64,000 nucleotides of DNA from Minisyncoccota bacterium (lineage in GTDB: Bacteria; Patescibacteriota; Minisyncoccia; Phycocordibacterales; UBA918), in the NCBI GenBank assembly GCA_041389045.1, contig JAWKSQ010000001.1:139063-203062 (forward strand), in the 5' to 3' direction. The translations under genes were made by a program, and so were the position numbers. The notes under the pieces are model-generated. The model had not been told where the DNA came from. It did no database searches and saw only the letters and a list, made by a program, of their open reading frames with translations. Each line of letters begins with the position of its first letter. Position 1 is the first letter of the stretch. This document shows positions 2,899-49,470 of the stretch, piece after piece.

Positions 2899-3447
2899 AT
2901 GTACGTTAAGACCCTTAGAGTAGTTTTTGCAAAACCACTGTATGCCACACTATTTTTAGTAATTAGTTTCTTCGTGCTATCGGTAGCTATTATGTTGCCT
3001 CACGTAGGGCTAATAAGAACTTTATGGCAGTACGAATCGGTGTCTGTTGTTGAAATTTTGCTACTGACAGCAAATCTCTACGGGTCATTAGGAACAAACT
3101 TCACTATTCTGTCAGCTTCTTACACTGTGGTCATTGCTTTACTGTTTGGCATGCAGGTGACGCTTCTTGTGTACTATCTTAAAAGCATACGAAACAAAGC
3201 TACCAATCTGACCAGTGTAGGGGCCAGTGGAGTTGGTGGACTCATTAGTGGTTTTTTTGGTATCGGGTGTGCCGCTTGTGGGACATTTTTACTGTCTTCA
3301 ATCCTAGTGTTGTTCGGAGCTGGCGGATTGCTTGCGTGGCTACCGTTTGGTGGAGAAGAATTTGGTTTAATCGGAATAGGTTTATTGGTGTATGCCAATT
3401 ACCTCATTATAAAGAAAATAGATGCACCAAAAGTGTGCACATCGTAG
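2899..3447 (+). CDS. hypothetical 4-TM membrane protein with an intramembrane CxxC (GCAACG)
   Basis: Four hydrophobic segments. The third is Gly-rich and contains FGIGCAACGTF. The gene starts 6 nt after the dsbA-like gene. Confidence 0.5.
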   Translation: MYVKTLRVVFAKPLYATLFLVISFFVLSVAIMLPHVGLIRTLWQYESVSVVEILLLTANLYGSLGTNFTILSASYTVVIALLFGMQVTLLVYYLKSIRNKATNLTSVGASGVGGLISGFFGIGCAACGTFLLSSILVLFGAGGLLAWLPFGGEEFGLIGIGLLVYANYLIIKKIDAPKVCTS

Positions 3448-3474
3448 TTATTATTTATCCTAAATTATTAAAAT

Positions 3475-4008
3475 ATGAAACCATTAGTAATTATTATAGG
3501 TCTTGCAGTAATACTCTTAATTGGTGGATCGTGGTGGTCTAACACTTCTCAGCAGAAAGATTTCGAGCAAGAAATCATTGGTATCACCTCGACTATTGTT
3601 ACAGACCGTAGTCATGTACAGACTGAAGTTGATTACAAAGACACGCCCCCTGTTGGTGGAAATCATCATCCCGTGTGGTTGAGTTGTAACGGTGATATCT
3701 ATGATGAACCAGTTGTAGATGAAAATGCAGTCCATTCACTTGAGCATGGTGCGGTCTGGATTACGTATCAACCTAACTTATCAGTTGCAGATATAGAAAC
3801 GCTGGAGAAAAAAGTCACTGGCTATTCCTTTATTAGCCCCTATCCAGAACAAGAGTCTCTGATCATGATGACCGCTTGGGGTGTGCAACTTCCGCTTGAT
3901 ACTGTTGATGATCCGCGCATAGATCAATTTCTAGCTAAATTTCGACAAGGACCCCAAACACCCGAACCAGGAGCAACCTGCAACGCTATTCCGGGTGGAA
4001 TGCAATAA
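3475..4008 (+). CDS. DUF3105 domain protein
   Basis: N-terminal TM segment, PPVGGNHHPVW and VHSLEHGAVWITYQP match my recollection of the DUF3105 pattern. Confidence 0.75.
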   Translation: MKPLVIIIGLAVILLIGGSWWSNTSQQKDFEQEIIGITSTIVTDRSHVQTEVDYKDTPPVGGNHHPVWLSCNGDIYDEPVVDENAVHSLEHGAVWITYQPNLSVADIETLEKKVTGYSFISPYPEQESLIMMTAWGVQLPLDTVDDPRIDQFLAKFRQGPQTPEPGATCNAIPGGMQ

Positions 4009-4016
4009 GTCTGTAT

Positions 4017-4640
4017 ATGAAATACCAGATTCTAAAACAAAATTGGCTCGTCGTACTTCTTGGTGTAGTAGTTGGAATGGTTATTTTTCTCTGGGGACAA
4101 AATAACCAGTCTGGAGATACACCAAACGCTGCTGAAATTGGCTTTGCTCAAGATATGAGTGTTCACCATCAACAGGCAATAGAGATGTCATTCTTAGTTC
4201 GAGAAAAAACTGACAATCAAGAGATTCGAAGTTTTGCTTTTGACATCATCAACACACAAGCTAATCAGCGAGGGATGATGCTGGGCTGGCTTGATTTGTG
4301 GCAACAGCCCATGACCACCACCGGAAGACCAATGATGTGGATGCAAGCTGCAATGGATACTATGGATCATAGTCAGATGAGTAGCTCATTTACTTCTGGA
4401 GCCTATATGCCAGGTATGGCCACTAAAGCTGAAATGGAAAAGCTTGTAAACGTAGACGCCATTGAAGCAGAAAAATTATTTCTCGAACTGATGATTCGAC
4501 ATCATCAAGGCGGAGTGATGATGGCACAGGGTGTGATTGACCGTAGTGATAATGAAGTAGTCACACGATTGGCGGAAACGATGGTCAATGGCCAACAAGC
4601 CGAAATTGATTATATGAACGAATTGTTAACAAACTACTAA
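4017..4640 (+). CDS. DUF305 domain protein (ferritin-like four-helix, metal-stress associated)
   Basis: Two DUF305 repeats: FAQDMSVHHQQAIEMS and MIRHHQGGVMMAQ. N-terminal TM segment. Confidence 0.8.
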   Translation: MKYQILKQNWLVVLLGVVVGMVIFLWGQNNQSGDTPNAAEIGFAQDMSVHHQQAIEMSFLVREKTDNQEIRSFAFDIINTQANQRGMMLGWLDLWQQPMTTTGRPMMWMQAAMDTMDHSQMSSSFTSGAYMPGMATKAEMEKLVNVDAIEAEKLFLELMIRHHQGGVMMAQGVIDRSDNEVVTRLAETMVNGQQAEIDYMNELLTNY

Positions 4641-16400: not shown

Positions 16401-16436
16401 ACTAACAAGACCACTCAATTGAGTGGTCTTGTTAGT
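16401..16436 (+). terminator. 16-bp perfect hairpin terminator
   Basis: ACTAACAAGACCACTC-AATT-GAGTGGTCTTGTTAGT followed by TT. Confidence 0.7.
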
Positions 16437-16493
16437 TTGCTAGACTTGCTGAGATTGATGGGGTATTAACCCCTCTCGATAGGTCTCGCTACG

Positions 16494-16569: not shown

Positions 16570-16745
16570 AGATATTAGATTGTAATACGTATCTCTCCTT
16601 AATAAGGGTAAACAGTATGGGGTACTGTTTACGCGTACCGAGGTGAGCTATAGGCGTATTTATCAAACTTCAATACGTATCTCTCCTTAATAAGGGTAAA
16701 CAGTATGGGGTACTGTTTACGCGTACCGAGGTGAGTTGTGGCCGC
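16558..16745. repeat. 88-bp tandem direct repeat (about 2.1 copies) that includes the first 12 nt of tRNA-Lys
   Basis: The 64-nt core is identical at 16584-16647 and 16672-16735. GAGCTATAGGCG (the tRNA 5' end, 16558-16569) recurs at 16646-16657 and degenerately at 16734-16745. Each unit holds the hairpin GTAAACAGTA-TGGGG-TACTGTTTAC. Confidence 0.8.
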
Positions 16746-26654: not shown

Positions 26655-26726
26655 GCTCTCGTAGTTTAATGGATAAAATGCTGGTTTGCGGTACCAGCGC
26701 TCCAGGTTCGATTCCTGGCGAGAGCA
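26655..26726 (+). tRNA. tRNA-Arg (anticodon GCG)
   Basis: Acceptor GCTCTCG/CGAGAGC, anticodon stem CTGGT/ACCAG with loop TTGCGGT, T arm CCAGG-TTCGATT-CCTGG, discriminator A. No encoded CCA. Confidence 0.75.
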
Positions 26727-26876
26727 CAAATAAACACTCCCAATAATATGGGGTGTTTATTTTTGTAGCTCGAAGAGCCGGAGTCTTCGTCCAGGAATCG
26801 AAAACTGTATATCGCACGGAGCAGAAGCAGTGACGGCTGCCGTCCCATGAGGAAGATTACCCTGGCGAGAGCACCA
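26727..26876. repeat. tRNA-linked repeat unit ending in a duplicated tRNA-Arg(GCG) 3' fragment
   Basis: Contains hairpin 26729-26765, short hairpin CGAAGA..TCTTCG 26771-26789, and CCAGGAATCGAA 26791-26802, which is the reverse complement of the tRNA T arm 26707-26718. CCTGGCGAGAGCA at 26861-26873 duplicates 26714-26726 and is followed by CCA. Confidence 0.7.
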
Positions 26877-34291: not shown

Positions 34292-34701
34292 AAGAAATCT
34301 ATCACGGGACAACTCAAAAAGACTTACAGGTAATCAAGCCTTTTAAAAGATATACGCCTGGTGGCAAAGACATCGCTGATTCTATTCCTCCACGTATTTA
34401 TGCTACCTACAATCCAGCTTACGCTGTTGCGCACAGCTTCCCTTGGTCTTCTGATGATGGAGTAGATATTTCAATTAGAGACGGCATAGTAACTATCATT
34501 GTCCCAAGTGATAAAGAGTCTGTACTTAAACAAGAGGTCTGTATCTACACGCTTCCTGATGACACTTTTGTTTTTACTGATGAGGAAGAAACTGGTCTAA
34601 CTTATCACACTACCGAAGAAATTAAACCTATTACGTGTCAAAGCTTTAAAAGTGTTGCAGAAGCAATGGATAAAATGGGAGGAAAAATTATCTTTATATA
34701 A
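34288..34701 (+). CDS. hypothetical protein
   Basis: 137-aa ORF overlapping the grpB stop by 4 nt. No family recognised. Confidence 0.45.
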   Translation: MKEIYHGTTQKDLQVIKPFKRYTPGGKDIADSIPPRIYATYNPAYAVAHSFPWSSDDGVDISIRDGIVTIIVPSDKESVLKQEVCIYTLPDDTFVFTDEEETGLTYHTTEEIKPITCQSFKSVAEAMDKMGGKIIFI

Positions 34702-34743
34702 AAGTAAACAAATACGAAACTGAAGCGATTCATAACCTTCCTT

Positions 34744-34811
34744 TGACGCAGGTTACTAAGTGTTCTCACCAATTTCATTGGTTGCGAGCACTAAGTACCT
34801 GCTGTCCCAGC
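34744..34811 (+). repeat. 68-bp element, itself hairpin-forming; left copy of a perfect inverted repeat (partner 38955..39022)
   Basis: The reverse complement of 38955-39022 is identical over all 68 nt (checked base by base). Internal arms GCAGGTTACTAAGTG / CACTAAGTACCTGC and ACCAAT / ATTGGT. Confidence 0.9.
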
Positions 34812-34999
34812 GCATTTGTTTTCTTTCTGAGGAGAAAGAAAACAGCCTTTACGCTTCACAAAACTACAAAACCAGCCGCAGGGCTGGTTTTGTTTAATGT
34901 TTTGTGGGGTCAAGTTTCTAATTCACTACGTTCATAAGAACTTCCTCCCCGACCTCGTCTATTTTGGCATTAAGTAATAGCCAAAATATGACTCCGGTT

Positions 35000-35101
35000 G
35001 GCACACAGGCACGAAACTGAAGCAATTCAGTTTCTAAATCAAAAGCACGATTCTCTCAAAGAATCGTGCTTTTGATTTACCTGTGTGCCCCCGCGAGGAA
35101 T
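35000..35101. repeat. tRNA-linked three-helix module ending in a displaced tRNA-Arg(TCT) 3' fragment
   Basis: Closing helix GGCACACAGG 35000-35009 / CCTGTGTGCC 35080-35089. Hairpin GAAACTGAA-GCAA-TTCAGTTTC 35013-35034. Long hairpin 35036-35078. GTGCCCCCGCGAGGAAT at 35085-35101 duplicates 35306-35322. Confidence 0.7.
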
Positions 35102-35306
35102 GATCCCGCAGTTTCTAATTCTCTATGCCCGCCTGACGGCAGGCTAGCTCATAAGAACTGCTGGACGCAGCTCCCTCGTTTTCTTTCTAGGAAGGAAAGA
35201 AAACATCACTCCGCTGGTTCGATTCCTACGAAAAGTGCCTATGCACTTTTCTCTTGGGGTACGAACAAAAACGGCACACATAATAGTGTGCTCGTTTTTG
35301 TACTCG
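35102..35306. repeat. tRNA-linked repeat unit adjacent to the intact tRNA-Arg(TCT)
   Basis: GGTTCGATTCCT 35216-35227 is the reverse complement of the tRNA T arm region 35317-35328. Hairpin GAAAAGTGC-CTAT-GCACTTTTC lies in 35228-35252 and a long terminator-like hairpin at 35259-35303. Hairpin GTTTTCTTTCT..GAAAGAAAAC lies near 35178-35206. Confidence 0.65.
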
Positions 35307-35378
35307 TGCCCCCGCGAGGAATCGAACCTCGAATAACGGCTTAGAAGTCCGCAGTTATATCCATTTAACTACAAGGGC
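35307..35378 (-). tRNA. tRNA-Arg (anticodon TCT)
   Basis: Acceptor GCCCTTG/CGGGGGC (two G-U pairs), anticodon loop CTTCTAA, T arm CGAGG-TTCGATT-CCTCG, discriminator A. Confidence 0.8.
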
Positions 35379-35455
35379 AATCAACTTGCGAAGCATAGCA
35401 GAAAAAGATGGTGCTGTGAATATTAGATGAAAAGCAAATGGCATCGCGCTTGCAG

Positions 35456-35726
35456 GGTGAAAGGCTCGATCACCTCGCTGAGTATTTTTGTTCAAGATAA
35501 AGTTTTTTCGTGGTCACGAATCACTAAGTATATTTCTGCACTTCGTGCGAAATCCACTAAGTGTTCTCGACCCAGGCTCAACCCTTTTCTTCCCTGTGAA
35601 GGGGAAGAAAAGATGTCTCCGCCTCGCACTAAGGCACGAAAGCAAAGCAGTTTGCTTTCTAAAAGAAAAGCCCAGTCAATTTGTGACTGGGCTTTTCTTT
35701 TACCTTAGTGCGCGATGAGAGGCTCG
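35456..35726. repeat. tRNA-linked repeat unit ending in a displaced tRNA-Val 3' fragment
   Basis: 35456-35492 is homologous to 35715-35751. ACTAAGT-armed hairpins. Hairpin CCTTTTCTTCCC..GGGGAAGAAAAG. Closing helix CGCACTAAGG 35625-35634 / CCTTAGTGCG 35703-35712 encloses hairpins 35636-35660 and 35661-35701. TAGTGCGCGATGAGAGGCTCG at 35706-35726 duplicates 35894-35914. Confidence 0.7.
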
Positions 35727-35896
35727 GTCACCTCGCTAAGTATTTTTGTTCGCTATGCTCCAAAAAGTACTAAGCTCCTCGACCCCGGCTATTTTAATTC
35801 TCCAAGTCTTCGAATTAAAATCACGCCCTTCGAGCCTCACACATCTATGCCTGAGACACAAAATGTCCCAGCAAAAGCTGGGACATTTTGGTCTAG
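35727..35896. repeat. tRNA-linked repeat unit adjacent to the intact tRNA-Val
   Basis: CTAAGT-armed hairpin 35737-35781. Hairpin ATTTTAATTC..GAATTAAAAT. TTCGAGCCTC 35829-35838 is the reverse complement of the tRNA T arm 35907-35916. Terminator-like hairpin 35860-35889. Confidence 0.65.
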
Positions 35897-35969
35897 TGCG
35901 CGATGAGAGGCTCGAACTCCCGACCTTCGCAGTGTAAATGCGCTGCTCTACCAACTGAGCTAATCGCGC
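35897..35969 (-). tRNA. tRNA-Val (anticodon TAC)
   Basis: Acceptor GCGCGAT/ATCGCGC, D arm GCTCAGTTGGTAGAGC, anticodon loop TTTACAC, T arm GGGAG-TTCGAGC-CTCTC, discriminator A. Confidence 0.85.
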
Positions 35970-36055
35970 AGACTTTCATATCTGCGTCGCCATATACTAC
36001 CGGTTTTTCAAATATTATCAATATCTCTCCTGGCAGGTATACTGTGTCATATATT

Positions 36056-36328
36056 ATGACAGAAATTCAGTGTGTAATAACTGGTAAAGTGCAAAGAGTT
36101 GGTTATCGAGATTTTGTTCAAGATGCTGCCGCTGAACTTGGGCTGTTTGGCTACGTGCAAAATCAAGCGGACGGCTCGGTCACTCTAGTGGCTCAAGGTG
36201 AACCAGAATCACTTAGACTCTTTGTTGAATATTTGCACGAAGGTTCACCCTTGTCGAAAGTAGAGGGAGTGGCTGTTGAGTGGCGAACCTCGACGAAACT
36301 ATATGATGATTTTTCTAGTTTAATTTAG
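36056..36328 (+). CDS. acyP: acylphosphatase
   Basis: ITGKVQRVGYRDFV..GYVQNQADGSVTLVAQGE. The start is set at the internal ATG 36056, because the upstream part of the ORF-track frame runs over the tRNA. Confidence 0.85.
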   Translation: MTEIQCVITGKVQRVGYRDFVQDAAAELGLFGYVQNQADGSVTLVAQGEPESLRLFVEYLHEGSPLSKVEGVAVEWRTSTKLYDDFSSLI

Positions 36329-36329
36329 G

Positions 36330-37016
36330 ATGAAAACAAACTCCGGTTCGCTCCAGTGTGTGGGATTTATTATGGATGGTAATCGACGCTTTGCTAAGGC
36401 GAAGGGTGAAGAAACCTTAGCAGGGCATTTGGCTGGGAAGGAGAAATTTAAGGAGGTAATAGATTGGGTGATTGAGGCTAGTATCCCCCATGCGGTTTTC
36501 TATGCTTTTTCAACTGAAAATTGGAAACGTAGCGCAGATGAAATTGAATATCTATTGGGGTTATTAATGAATGAATCAGACCCTGATTCAAATTATATTA
36601 ATAAAAATGTCAGATTAAGGACAATCGGAGATATTGATCGCTTTCCAAAGTTGATGCAGGCTAGGCTTAGAAAGTCAGAGCTTGAAACAGCTGGCAAGAG
36701 ATATGTCACAACAGTTTGGTTGGCTTTGTCATACGGTGGTCGAGCTGAAATTGTTAAAGCGGTAAATCTGGCTATTAAAAATGGAGAACCAGTAACGGAA
36801 AAATCTTTTCACCAGCTACTAGAGACTAGAGAAATGCCTGACCCCGATCTAATCATTAGGACCGGTGGGGAACAAAGGTTATCGAACTTTCTCCCTTGGC
36901 AAAGTATCTATAGTGAACTTTTCTTTGTTGATACCTACTGGCCGGCTTTTACAAAAGACGAATTTCAGCGTATTCTCAGCGAATATGCAAAAAGAGAACG
37001 GAGACTTGGTCGCTAA
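36330..37016 (+). CDS. uppS: isoprenyl transferase (undecaprenyl diphosphate synthase)
   Basis: GFIMDGNRRFAK, FSTENWKR and RTGGEQRLSNFLPWQSIYSELFF. Confidence 0.9.
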   Translation: MKTNSGSLQCVGFIMDGNRRFAKAKGEETLAGHLAGKEKFKEVIDWVIEASIPHAVFYAFSTENWKRSADEIEYLLGLLMNESDPDSNYINKNVRLRTIGDIDRFPKLMQARLRKSELETAGKRYVTTVWLALSYGGRAEIVKAVNLAIKNGEPVTEKSFHQLLETREMPDPDLIIRTGGEQRLSNFLPWQSIYSELFFVDTYWPAFTKDEFQRILSEYAKRERRLGR

Positions 37017-37767
37017 TGATGTGGCTTTGATTCCAGAAATAATCTACGAAGATGATGATGTTTTGGTAATTAACAAACCTTATGGTTTGCTTGTGCATGA
37101 GGATTGGACAGCTAGTAACTCGCAGACAGTAGTCGAGTGGTTTCTTGACCGAGTGCCAAGTGCTCACGGGGTAGGTGAAGTAACGACTAAGCCAGACGGG
37201 ACACCACTTGAACGTTCGGGGGTAGTGCATCGCTTAGACCGAGAAACTTCTGGAGTGATGATTTTGGCTAAGACAGCTAAGGCGCACGCTCATTTGAAAA
37301 AGCAGTTTCATGATCGATTGGTTAAAAAAGAGTATCGTGCTTTCGTCTACGGACGACTACATGATCAGTGGGGAACTATCAACCGACCGATTGGGCGCAA
37401 TCCAAAAGACTTCAAGAAGCGTTCCGCTGAAAGGGGAGCGAAGGGTACCCTTCGTGACGCCCTTACTTACTTTGAAAGAATTGGTGTCGGTGAGTATGAG
37501 GGCGAACCATTTTCTTACGTTAAGCTCTTACCTAAAACTGGTCGAACCCATCAACTGCGGGTGCACTTAAGGGCGATAGACAGAGCCATCGTGTGTGACG
37601 CACTTTATGCCGATAAGAAAATGCCAATCTCTAATAATTTAGGTTTAGACCGACTGGCTCTCCATGCGCATGTTCTGGAAATAGAAATGTTAAATGGTGA
37701 AAAAGAGCGCTTCATTGCAACGATTCCAAGGGATTTTGAGCTAGCGGCTGAACGTATTGCAGAGTAG
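37006..37767 (+). CDS. RluA-family pseudouridine synthase (no S4 domain)
   Basis: VLVINKPYGLLVH, HRLDRETSGVMILAK and GRTHQLRVH. Start uncertain (TTG 37006 or GTG 37021). The long upstream extension in the ORF track overlaps uppS and I rejected it. Confidence 0.75.
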   Translation: MVANDVALIPEIIYEDDDVLVINKPYGLLVHEDWTASNSQTVVEWFLDRVPSAHGVGEVTTKPDGTPLERSGVVHRLDRETSGVMILAKTAKAHAHLKKQFHDRLVKKEYRAFVYGRLHDQWGTINRPIGRNPKDFKKRSAERGAKGTLRDALTYFERIGVGEYEGEPFSYVKLLPKTGRTHQLRVHLRAIDRAIVCDALYADKKMPISNNLGLDRLALHAHVLEIEMLNGEKERFIATIPRDFELAAERIAE

Positions 37768-37823
37768 GAAGGGGTGTGGTAGATTATGGCACGTTTAATC
37801 GTCCTATTGATTAGGTATTTATT

Positions 37824-38498
37824 ATGAAAACAGCAGTTACAGGAGTTACGGTTTCGCCCGTAAATATGAGTGAAAGAGTCGACCTAGGAATTAGGGCTGG
37901 CGACACTGTTCGTGTGCACCAGAAAATTCAAGATAAAGGTAAGACACGTATCCAGATTTTTGAAGGAATCGTGTTGGCCCGTAAGCATGGTACAGAACCA
38001 GGCGCTACTTTTACCGTTCGTAAGGTAGCTAGTGGAGTGGGTGTAGAAAAAATCTTCCCGCTTTACTCACCACTAATCGACAAGCTAGAAATTGTTAAGC
38101 GCGCTAAGGTTCGTCGCAGTAAGCTTTACTACATCCGTGAAAAAGTGGCTCGTGAGGTTAAGCGTCAAATGCGACGTATGACAATGATGGGGCTTTCTAC
38201 AGAGTCTGAGACCGAGTCAGCACTACGCGCAGCAGCTGAAGCCAAGGCTTTAGAAGAAGCAGAGCTAAAGGAAAAGGCTGAAGCTGAAGCTCGCGAAGCA
38301 GAATTCGCCGCTAAGGAAGCAGAAGAAAAGGCTAAGAAAGAAGAGGCGGATGCAGCGGCCAAGGCAGAAGCAGAGGCAGTTGCTACTCCAGTAGAAGAAG
38401 CTCCTGCTCCAGTTGAGACTCCAGCTGAAGAAGTAAAGGTAGAAGAAGTGAAAACAGAAGAAGCTACAGCTGTTGAAGAAAGCGAGAAGAAGGAATAA
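37824..38498 (+). CDS. rplS: 50S ribosomal protein L19 with an Ala/Glu/Lys-rich C-terminal extension
   Basis: [42 protein letters not shown] core, then about 110 aa of low-complexity AEAKEE repeats. Confidence 0.9.
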
Positions 38499-38512
38499 GT
38501 TTCAAAATACCT

Positions 38513-38548
38513 AAAACAAAAACCGGACCCTCGTCCGGTTTTTGTTTT
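38513..38548 (+). terminator. rho-independent terminator after rplS
   Basis: AAAACAAAAACCGGACCC-TCG-TCCGGTTTTTGTTTT. Confidence 0.8.
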
Positions 38549-38607
38549 GCTTGAAGTAGATGGCCTTTTCAGGCATAATGGCGCCACGCCCAAAAGGCGT
38601 GTCACCT

Positions 38608-38692
38608 GCCCAGGTGGTGAAATTGGTATACACGTATCCTTGAGGTGGATATGCCGAAAGGTGTGGAGGTTCAAGTCCTCTCCTGGGCACCA
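38608..38692 (+). tRNA. tRNA-Leu (anticodon GAG), CCA encoded
   Basis: Acceptor GCCCAGG/CCTGGGC, anticodon stem TATCC/GGATA with loop TTGAGGT, long variable arm, T arm GGAGG-TTCAAGT-CCTCT, then ACCA. Confidence 0.85.
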
Positions 38693-38826
38693 GATTAAAG
38701 CCGGCGACTAGCCGGTTTTAATGTGGGCGAGAGGACTTGAAAAGCTTTTGAGGCAGAATTGACTGAAAGGAAATTGTGTCCAAAAGGTCTACTGAACATG
38801 TAATGTTCAAGTCCTCTCCTGGGCAC
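38693..38826. repeat. tRNA-linked repeat unit ending in a duplicated tRNA-Leu 3' fragment
   Basis: Terminator hairpin 38697-38719. GAGAGGACTTGAA 38729-38741 is the reverse complement of the tRNA T arm 38670-38682. GTTCAAGTCCTCTCCTGGGCAC at 38805-38826 duplicates 38669-38690 (22 nt). Confidence 0.7.
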
Positions 38827-39022
38827 AGAGTCGCAAAAACAAGAACACCACCTTTAGGTGGTGTTCTTGTTTTTAGGAAGCAAACTGCTTTGCTTCCGGC
38901 GACTCTGTGAAGCGGAGACATGTTCTTGCTCGTTTCTAGAGCAAGAACAGTTGAGCTGGGACAGCAGGTACTTAGTGCTCGCAACCAATGAAATTGGTGA
39001 GAACACTTAGTAACCTGCGTCA
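38824..39022 (-). repeat. tRNA-linked repeat unit in inverted orientation, containing the right copy of the 68-bp inverted repeat
   Basis: Closing helix CACAGAGTCGC 38824-38834 / GCGACTCTGTG 38899-38909 encloses hairpins 38835-38874 and 38876-38897. Hairpin GTTCTTGCTC..GAGCAAGAAC lies near 38921-38949. The 68-bp element is at 38955-39022. Confidence 0.7.
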
Positions 39023-39038
39023 AAAAATCTTACGTTTT

Positions 39039-39140
39039 GCCGGTTTTAATGTGGGCGAGAGGACTTGAAAAGGTTGCCAGCTATTTTGAAAAAATAGCGA
39101 CAACCTGTACTGAACTCCTAGAGTTCAAGCCCTCTTCCAA
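39039..39140. repeat. second, degenerate copy of the tRNA-Leu-linked unit
   Basis: 34 nt are identical to 38711-38744 (GCCGGTTTTAATGTGGGCGAGAGGACTTGAAAAG at 39039-39072). It ends in GTTCAAGCCCTCTTCC, a degenerate tRNA-Leu 3' fragment. Confidence 0.6.
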
Positions 39141-39190
39141 CTTATGAATATATTGACAAAATACTATAAAAATGTTATTATATAAAAATA

Positions 39191-39507
39191 ATGAAAAATC
39201 TTGGCTACAAAGTATTTTTGCTCGGAGCAGTATTCCTAATCCCTTCGTAGGGCAGGCCAATTTTGATACTACAGCGCCAGGTCTACTCGACGAAAAGCCA
39301 GTTTCTCTTTTTGAGGATATTGCCGGATGTTTCTATGGTAGTACTGAGGGTGGTTTTAACTTCACTCAACAGCCGGTGACTAATGAGTTTGACTTGAGGA
39401 TACAGAAGTTTGTGATGGGGGACTTAGTTTTTTATATTTCTGACTTAGGTGTAATCACTGCCGATAGTGACCTAATGGCTATATCAATCTATCTTTCGTA
39501 CTCGTAG
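39191..39507 (+). CDS. hypothetical small secreted protein, frame interrupted once
   Basis: Signal-like MKNLGYKVFLLGAVFLIP in one frame joins FVGQANFDTTAPG.. (ORF 39172-39507) if the C3 run near 39243 is read as C4. Confidence 0.4.
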
Positions 39508-49209: not shown

Positions 49210-49470
49210 CGTAAAAATATTATAACAAGTTTTAATTTCTCTATAGAGTAGCTATAAAAAACTAATGTAGCACTGCTTCAAAATGATCGGTACCAGGGTA
49301 ATCTTTCGCTACACGAACGGTACAGTTTTCACACCTTACTTCGCCAAAGGCTCGTTTCGGCATGTTCAAACTCTTCGATTCTCGACGCTAGTGACGTAGG
49401 TCACTAGCTGTAGCCTAGTCATAAAAAAGAAACCTCTCCCGAAAAGGGGAGAAGCTTCGTTTTCCTGATG

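Follow-up and report, generated by a model that had tools for sequence, protein, structure and literature searches.

The gene for tRNA-Leu(GAG) in a 64,000-nt stretch of the genome of a Minisyncoccota bacterium (GenBank assembly GCA_041389045.1, contig JAWKSQ010000001.1, positions 139,063 to 203,062; the whole stretch is referred to below as the window) is followed by a tandem array of short units, which contain no open reading frames (ORFs) and consist of direct and inverted copies of the tRNA tail arranged around a structured body. Most tRNA genes in the 64-kb window carry units of this conserved element, which is also abundant in environmental metagenomes. The units represent a widespread, apparently undescribed element family tied to tRNA tails; no description of such an element was found in the literature. 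Their hosts, where identifiable, are uncultured Patescibacteria. These bacteria, also known as the candidate phyla radiation (CPR), have tiny genomes, which are thought to be poor in mobile elements. The data given below establish the architecture of the units, their fixed position and orientation, their spread, their turnover, and the conservation of structure on their sense strand. With regard to their nature, we favour the reading that the tRNA-Leu locus is a tandem stack of ORF-less, non-autonomous mobile cassettes of approximately 110-330 bp specialised for the 3' ends of tRNA genes, and give it about an even chance of being correct.

Repeat array behind tRNA-Leu(GAG)

The G+C content of the stretch is 42%, and its RluA protein is 100% identical to one annotated in a metagenome-assembled genome of Candidatus Paceibacterota (Patescibacteria). 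A preceding sequence-only reading had stated that the last 22 nt of tRNA-Leu recur 136 bp downstream, and both copies proved to be exact: the segment GTTCAAGTCCTCTCCTGGGCAC, which corresponds to tRNA positions G53-C74, i.e. the tail short of the final CA (designated T3' below), occupies 38669-38690 and 38805-38826. No further copies were present in the window at up to three mismatches, and none of 100 shuffles gave a match. The reverse complement of the T arm, which had been placed behind the terminator hairpin of the tRNA, was found there as well. Namely, the hairpin at 38700-38719 is followed by GAGAGGACTTGAA (38729-38741; designated antiT), an exact reverse complement of the T-loop and the 3' strand of the T-stem. 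The second copy of the unit, reported to begin at 39039, shares 36 of 37 positions between 38711-38747 and 39039-39075, the first 34 being identical, and closes with the expected degenerate Leu fragment, GTTCAAGCCCTCTTCC (39123-39138), in which 13 of 16 positions agree with the tRNA 3' end.

Two types of body were recognized in this array. Type A comprises AA, a hairpin (H3), and (G)GTGTACTGAACATGTAAT; its end, ..TGTACTGAACATGTAAT, directly abuts the GTTC of the displaced T-loop. Type B is composed of CGGAGnnATG, a hairpin, CGAG...GGG, and a long imperfect hairpin bracketed by CTTA(G)/TTAG. Judged by sequence, both Leu units are assigned to type A, and the unit between them, earlier described as an inverted unit of the Arg/Val type, to type B. 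The kinship with the Arg/Val locus was upheld, positions 38946-39024 being 96% complementary to 34742-34820; the inversion exists only in window coordinates. The tRNA genes of the Arg/Val locus lie on the minus strand, and therefore all units have the same orientation relative to their own tRNA, i.e. downstream and sense. The term 'Leu-specific', which had been applied to the duplicated unit, had to be abandoned: only the tRNA-derived flanks are Leu-specific, while near-identical bodies are located behind the tRNAs for Ser, Asp, Val, Arg, Cys, Trp, and others.

The features of the locus are listed below; L numbers denote the stretches of other genomes or metagenome contigs used for comparison.

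38551-38579 (+): sigma-70-like promoter TTGAAG-17-CATAAT, 5' of tRNA-Leu (consensus match only)
38608-38692 (+): tRNA-Leu(GAG) with encoded CCA (ARAGORN; Rfam RF00005, 52.6 bits)
38669-38690 (+): T3' segment, direct repeat copy 1
38700-38719 (+): terminator hairpin A, GCCGGCgactaGCCGG followed by TTTT
38729-38741 (+): antiT, inverted T-loop and 3' T-stem strand
38742-38804 (+): type-A body of unit 1, with AA, hairpin H3, and the conserved right end CTACTGAACATGTAAT (nhmmer E = 1e-6 for 38739-38804)
38805-38826 (+): displaced T3', direct repeat copy 2
38835-38874 (+): terminator hairpin B with perfect 19-bp arms (inverted-repeat search)
38877-38897 (+): small hairpin GAAGCAAACTGCTTTGCTTC, recurring at 35637-35664 and in L011 and L118
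38899-38909 (+): inverted tRNA end and trailer, GCGACTCTGTG, the reverse complement of 38824-38834
38907-39026 (+): type-B body, CGGAG..hairpin..GAGCTGGG..long hairpin with CTTAG/CTTAG (E = 6.5e-20)
39039-39075 (+): copy 2 of the 37-nt block, i.e. the 3' half of terminator A and antiT (39057-39069)
39067-39122 (+): type-A body of unit 2, hairpin GGTTGCCAGCTATTTT..AAATAGCGACAACC and right end TGTACTGAACTCCTAGA (nhmmer E = 3e-9 for 39067-39115)
39123-39138 (+): degenerate T3' copy, taken as the oldest

The array thus runs from the tRNA through unit A1, the 22-nt T3' copy, terminator B, the small hairpin, the inverted tRNA end with trailer, unit B, half of terminator A with antiT, and unit A2 to the decayed T3'. 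This order can be parsed as two periods of (T3'-X-antiT3'-body), with the type-B unit placed inside the second linker. The body of unit 1 displays 84-88% identity to bodies in L085, L213, L113, and L136, and that of unit 2 is approximately 90% identical to bodies behind other tRNAs, such as Leu-TAG (L103) and Asp (L210).

Units at other tRNA genes and in metagenomes

The pattern had been said to be common to the tRNA-Leu and Arg/Val loci. Its occurrence is more general: four of the seven tRNA genes in the window, those for Leu, Arg(GCG), Arg(TCT), and Val, display this architecture, and in metagenomes it extends to 27 isoacceptors. Read in the direction of the tRNA, the layout is tRNA, terminator A, inverted tail copy, a body of 55-100 nt, direct tail copy, and terminator B. 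The direct copy begins within the T-loop. In better-preserved relatives, the inverted copy spans positions 74-54, with the complements of N73 and C74, and is interrupted by a small hairpin, H2, at the boundary of either acceptor and T-stem or T-stem and T-loop. In these genomes, the encoded part of CCA is limited in most tRNA genes to C74, which follows the discriminator base, and this C is included in direct and inverted copies alike. Apart from the Leu array, the following were located in the window:

26728-26874 (+): architecture behind tRNA-Arg(GCG) (26655-26727), with terminator, antiT at 26791-26802, body end GATTAC, and T3' at 26861-26874
35085-35305 (-): architecture behind tRNA-Arg(TCT) (35306-35378), with antiT at 35216-35227, type-B body at 35108-35216, and T3' at 35085-35101
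34902-35001 and 34741-34844 (-): two more type-B bodies, in the part of the Arg(TCT) array most distal to the tRNA (profile search)
35445-35895 (-): array behind tRNA-Val (35896-35969), whose first unit is divergent, type-B-like, and missed by the type-B profile

Beyond its first unit, the tRNA-Val array contains a T3' (35706-35726), a type-B unit (35508-35626), and a degenerate T3'-like end (35451-35471). The structure at tRNA-Arg(GCG) (26655-26874) had been absent from the earlier finding. As a result of nhmmer searches, the window holds two type-A bodies, both at tRNA-Leu, and five type-B bodies (34741-34844, 34902-35001, 35108-35216, 35508-35626, and 38907-39026). The type-A and type-B profile searches detected no body away from a tRNA in the window. 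A third type of body end, ..GATTAC, occurs behind tRNA-Arg(GCG) and, in a degenerate form, behind tRNA-His. In the latter case, a degenerate unit at 49275-49469 (-) contains the antiT-like GAGAATCGAA and a body end, GAAAGATTAC, as at tRNA-Arg(GCG); it closes with CCTGGTACCGATC, which is tRNA-tail-like yet does not match tRNA-His.

The architecture was revealed in over 200 independently assembled contigs, and an exact scan of metagenome contigs with GTACYGAACATGTAATGTTC retrieved the type-A end from at least 120 metagenome contigs. Collapsed or chimeric repeats were therefore given virtually no weight as an explanation. True, the source is metagenome-assembled and contigs often break at the arrays (L086, L156), but the same architecture appears with locus-specific sequence in contigs from independent projects and assemblers; the assembly artefact that the sequence-only reading had named as a possible refutation does not apply.

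The association with tRNA genes is strict for type A. A same-strand tRNA was present within 1 kb upstream of 155 of the 191 type-A bodies, and an opposite-strand tRNA was the nearest one for none of them; of the other 36 bodies, half lie less than 300 nt from a contig end. The isoacceptors served by type-A units (27) belong to Asp, Leu (five), Val, Ser (five), Cys, Trp, Met, Arg, Ala, Tyr, Lys, Gly, and Thr. At least 10 nt of the cognate tRNA tail follow the body in 128 of the 155 cases. In 92 type-A units, the distance to the upstream tRNA does not exceed 200 nt. Their direct copies most often match the tRNA exactly over 22-24 nt (G53-C74), and 63 of them do so over at least 21 nt. Some copies extend through the terminator (35-61 nt), and seven, exact over at least 98 nt, are tandem arrays with periods of approximately 140-170 bp. 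Among 52 type-B bodies, 38 have a same-strand tRNA upstream and five an opposite-strand one. The tail copy directly follows the body in only seven of these 38, so that type B is often an internal module of arrays.

In a sample of 78 tRNAs at loci from Paceibacteria, Kaiserbacteria, and other Patescibacteria, a direct tail copy was found within 450 nt in 17 and an inverted copy in addition in 11. Unrelated bacteria among the contigs from the RluA search contributed five tRNAs only, a number insufficient for a negative control. Neither the type-A nor the type-B core had a match in viral contigs, and blastn against phage genomes matched only the tRNA-Leu part.

Structure, turnover and cargo of the units

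The consensus fold of type B, derived from 12 bodies of the window and seven other genomes, is accompanied by compensatory changes at 16 of 21 pairs, and the unpaired CGGAG and CGAG motifs are invariant. Among 63 distinct type-A bodies, the H3 stem displays mixed pair types (e.g. CG 23, GC 21, and UG 9 at one position). On the tRNA-sense strand, its G.U pairs exceed A.C (27 versus 7), which argues for folding of the sense strand. Also, Leu unit 1 is predicted to fold better in sense (-38.5 kcal/mol) than in antisense (-29.4 kcal/mol), and the T3' of tRNA-Leu, terminator A, and the inverted copy form a predicted hairpin of -50 kcal/mol (z = -8.2). AntiT and T are 87% complementary. Their mismatches comprise 24 G.U, 16 A.C, and 81 other combinations, and this test for pairing at the RNA level gave no significant G.U bias. 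Apart from tRNAs, no unit matched Rfam at the gathering score, and no relevant match was obtained at E <=10 in 34600-39300. The right end of type A was also considered as a pseudo-T-arm formed with the displaced T-loop; no covariation links Y in GTACYGAAC to T-loop position 57, and the idea was rejected.

The strong covariation makes a functional RNA the main rival of the mobile-cassette reading. The units would then be structured-RNA genes or cis-elements, such as a tRNA-linked small RNA or a processing element, in which the inverted T3' copy pairs with the direct one to give a basal helix resembling the stack of acceptor and T-arm, and tandem copies arise by slippage. We regard this as possible, though doubtful. 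The covariation seen in both body types, the tolerance of G.U only on the tRNA-sense strand, and the better sense fold all speak for an RNA, and the units are always in sense, downstream of a tRNA. Conservation of sequence in single-stranded TGTACTGAAC..GTAAT and in CGGAG/CGAG, which are like tandem G.A pairs, and the presence of a terminator-like hairpin of their own after the displaced T3' in most units shown agree with it, too. The Leu array, however, contains no sigma-70-like promoter and is separated from the tRNA by a terminator-like hairpin. The lack of G.U bias in antiT/T mismatches and of any Rfam match, the pairing of N73 and C74 in the basal helix, which is unlike a tRNA mimic, and the decay of distal copies likewise disagree with an RNA function, as does a patchy presence with variable copy number among close relatives.

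The latter is evident at the orthologous tRNA-Leu. The window has the order A+B+A, whereas L004 (RluA identity 86%) possesses one type-B unit with a perfect 60-bp flanking repeat that includes the terminator, L085 and L199 possess one type-A unit each, and no unit is present in L001/L002 (RluA identity 82%) or L095-L099 (79%). Copy numbers vary from one to three among the close strains L153, L176, L137, and L182, the last of which has three. L001 and L002, with identical RluA, diverge exactly within the inverted copy behind tRNA-Val, and at tRNA-Arg(TCT) the DNA of L086/L088 differs from that of L087 from C74 onwards. Near-identical H3 hairpins are located behind Leu-TAG, Ser-GCT, and Leu-GAG, with terminators and inverted copies that fit the local tRNA. 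In addition, L165 contains a chimeric unit, anti(Lys) plus T3'(Leu), between convergent arrays. These arrays, of tRNA-Lys and tRNA-Leu(TAA), are situated at approximately 3300-4300 of a 1.03-Mb contig with 0.8 kb between them; the unit on the Lys side terminates in the tail of tRNA-Leu, evidence that bodies in inverted orientation have recombined.

Some units are associated with cargo. In L011, 4.2 kb with genes for PAS, His-kinase, and response-regulator proteins (Pfam) are enclosed by T3' copies. In L156, approximately 4 kb with four ORFs, which by eye only resemble those for ribosomally synthesized and post-translationally modified peptides (RiPPs), lie between two copies of one unit. No integrase was seen in the L011 cargo (Pfam) or, by eye, among the L156 cargo ORFs. 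The contig L156 (4209 bp) has identical first and last 82 nt and the order unit, T3', cargo, T3', unit; it is either a cargo cassette between identical units or a circular molecule.

Such islands between T3' copies would also be in line with the units being attL/attR (attachment-site) scars of prophages or integrative elements that were later deleted. Partial tRNA copies are a known signature of tRNA-integrating islands, and direct repeats of the tRNA 3' part are the classic mark of integration (PMC9897764). However, a unit of uniform size (110-170 bp), whose body is conserved and covarying and which recurs in at least 120 contigs and at 27 tRNAs, is not what random deletions would produce; given also that integrase remnants were not seen, that viral contigs gave no match, and that phage genomes matched tRNA-Leu only, we consider this origin quite improbable.

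Origin of the units and neighbouring features

The mobile-cassette reading is based on the strict position and orientation of the units, the boundary at the T-loop, stacking, turnover, the versions with cargo, and the lack of a promoter inside the array. A cassette would consist of T3' (positions 53-74), a terminator, an inverted T3' copy split by a hairpin, and the structured body. It would insert at the 5' edge of the T-loop, at positions 53-56; the T3' and terminator of the incoming cassette would complete the tRNA, and the previous T3' would be displaced downstream. Repeated insertion would generate (T3'-X-antiT3'-body)n-T3' with the newest cassette adjoining the tRNA, an order that fits the perfect 22-mer at unit 1 and the decayed copy at unit 2. 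The process suggested is site-specific recombination at the T-loop by an enzyme acting in trans, probably on a folded single strand.

A number of observations weigh against this reading. No recombinase was found in or adjoining any unit. The 20 ORFs scanned in the window include no tyrosine recombinase (Phage_integrase), and the sole recombinase, of the serine type (99-1145), is located 25 kb from the nearest unit. Homologues of this protein were noted directly 3' of tRNA-Val in L012 and, in L195, at a distance of 0.8 kb from a unit, an inconsistent pattern. Clustering of ORFs around 120 loci disclosed no recurrent recombinase, but only housekeeping proteins and, 5' of tRNAs, LAGLIDADG/HTH proteins. 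At 110-170 bp, the cassettes are below the size needed for a circular double-stranded intermediate of the conventional kind, and a cassette with its own T3' would wreck a different tRNA on jumping there. Bodies are common across tRNAs while terminators and inverted copies are not, which implies that the body alone moves or that gene conversion homogenises the bodies. The inverted T3' copy has no place in classical att logic and is more decayed than the direct copy, with 87% complementarity and no G.U bias. The distal T3'-terminator-antiT block of L085 and L199 is a diverged paralogue common across species, so that the arrays must be partly old and vertically inherited. Finally, a strict pair of empty and filled sites within one species was not recovered for any unit.

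Other known routes were considered as well. Reverse transcription of mature tRNA was rejected as the source of the copies because these contain the gene-encoded trailer and terminator and are devoid of CCA where the gene is devoid of it. IS200/IS605 insertion sequences, TnpB or IS110 guide RNAs, retron non-coding RNA, and snap-back replication are unsupported: the protein gene required is not nearby, and none of them predicts a long direct repeat.

The absence of a recombinase is in line with an origin by repair, without a dedicated enzyme, which we judge unlikely. In one version, the T-loop suffers double-strand breaks and then undergoes gene conversion, in which the displaced T3' provides the homology arm on the downstream side; LAGLIDADG-type endonucleases, encoded just 5' of many of these tRNAs, could be the source of the breaks. 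In the other versions, transformed DNA recombines homologously with the conserved tRNA as a landing pad, or templates are switched at the terminator palindrome. The junctions are confined to T-loop positions 53-56, a span close to that of a 4-nt staggered cut, and LAGLIDADG_3-like genes are the immediate 5' neighbours of unit-bearing tRNA-Leu, Asp, and Met genes. The repeat usually stops at C74, where conservation between species stops, and T3'-terminator-antiT3' is an extended palindrome. Nevertheless, no LAGLIDADG gene is located near many of the unit-bearing tRNAs, among them all those in the window, and the donor tRNA would stay cleavable. Template switching fails to explain a conserved body behind 27 tRNAs.

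The units share features with several known systems. The T-loop has reportedly been described as a sublocation used by tRNA-integrating elements (Williams 2002). As in tRNA-borne islands, prophages, and their integrase-less, att-flanked derivatives, the cis-mobilizable elements (CIMEs), the directly repeated segment stretches from the T-loop as far as the 3' end of the tRNA (exact 22 nt, mode 22-24), a 3' end supplied by the element preserves an intact tRNA, accretion is tandem, and cargo is present at some loci. Unlike these islands and CIMEs, the units measure 110-330 bp, lack an integrase or any other ORF, and contain an inverted copy of the tRNA segment as well as a structured body that is conserved. 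An integrase is normally dedicated to one tRNA, whereas a single body family is found at 27 or more. The difference from tRNA-integrating islands lies in the miniaturised, ORF-less, and structured character of the units.

Resemblance to integrons extends to the addition of cassettes at one entry point with the newest nearest, to cargo in some of them, and to an imperfect palindrome that on one strand is conserved in its structure and not in its sequence, here seen as covariation and as the excess of G.U over A.C. The junctions, marked by a slash, may be comparable: attC, with the boxes R'' (RYYYAAC) and R' (GTTRRRY), is joined at G/TTRRRY, and the units have G53/TTC of the T-loop. The inner boundaries of the units read ..CTTGAA(C) ... 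G/TTCAAG, with C instead of a purine as the fourth base. The palindrome arms of the units are 21-22 nt long and tRNA-specific, in contrast to the 7-nt consensus boxes of attC; the heads of the arrays are tRNA genes, most cassettes are empty, and intI, attI, and Pc were not found. Based on this comparison, the units may be the recombination sites of a new cassette system, in which a trans-acting enzyme recombines a folded single strand with the T-loop of the cognate tRNA between G53 and T54; we hold this to be rather unlikely. The strand of inverted T3', body, and T3' would rebuild a double-stranded T-loop/T-stem core, as the attC hairpin rebuilds the R and L boxes, and each tRNA gene would act as an attI-like platform on which empty and cargo cassettes are stacked. 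In another form of this reading, the inverted copy could be a nucleic-acid guide that selects the tRNA to be hit.

Like miniature inverted-repeat transposable elements (MITEs) and REPINs, which are mobilised in trans, the units are small, ORF-less, hairpin-forming, multi-copy, and intergenic. They differ in that their terminal inverted repeats reproduce the target tRNA, the flanking duplication, at 14 to more than 60 bp, has no fixed length, and they occur only behind tRNAs, always in one orientation. No parental insertion sequence or RAYT transposase was seen, although a genome-wide search for RAYT was not made. GTTC/CTTG is the target of IS91. The right end of type A always abuts GTTC, and one-ended transposition could explain the variable left boundary. 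IS91, however, makes no target duplication, whereas the units have one; type-B junctions are not at GTTC, and no HUH transposase was found. As in plant-mitochondrial t-elements, the inverted and T3' copies can form a predicted helix like that of acceptor and T-arm beside real tRNAs; in contrast to t-elements, they pair N73 and C74, and a terminator-like hairpin precedes the unit.

If mobile, the units represent a new way to exploit tRNA genes as safe harbours, in which the tRNA stays intact, specificity is re-fitted for each tRNA, and some cargo is carried. The tRNA tails would then be hot spots of gene flux in these organisms. If they are RNAs, they constitute a large undescribed family of tRNA-linked structured RNAs. 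In either case, the units break assemblies, create pseudo-hits to tRNA fragments, and offer strain-level markers.

Several further features were noted. The region 99-1502 of the window comprises the serine recombinase gene mentioned above, which encodes Resolvase and Recombinase domains and is apparently frameshifted, its ORF reaching to approximately 1430; it is followed by an orphan tRNA 3' fragment, GGTTCGAATCATCTCGTCTTACACACCA, at 1475-1502. The motif TAGCGAGrCCTAnCGAgAGG directly follows the 3' ends of several tRNAs or tail copies, namely in the window at 16430-16493 (-, 3' of tRNA-Lys) and 1503-1525, and in L087 and L156; it may mark one end of a different type of element that inserts behind tRNAs. 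On the 5' side of tRNA-Lys(TTT), at 16570-16740 (-), a segment of approximately 62 nt is duplicated in tandem, accompanied by a repeat of the initial 13 nt of the tRNA (16645-16657). This position is unlike the 3' pattern of the units.

The LAGLIDADG_3-like ORFs, of approximately 220-240 aa (Pfam 29-32 bits), are located immediately 5' of tRNA-Leu(GAG) or tRNA-Asp on the same strand. A second family, of 230 aa with an HTH_23 domain, occupies the same place before tRNA-Met, Gln, and Trp. ORFs of these kinds were recorded in L001 (11536-12204), L002, L008, L199 (1783-2460), L203, L140, L212, L122 (3256-3972), and L160. By their sequences, they look like free-standing homing endonucleases anchored at tRNA genes. 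Group I introns (Rfam RF00028, above the gathering score) were identified in L122 (4093-4321), L138 (1850-2068), and L160 (970-1170). The genes that carry them were missed by ARAGORN and appear from their 3' ends to be tRNA-Asp; type-A units are present behind them, too.

The gene for ribosomal protein L19 (37824-38498) encodes a C-terminal extension of approximately 90 aa, which is rich in Ala, Glu, and Lys. The extension is common to relatives, with varying lengths (190-238 aa).

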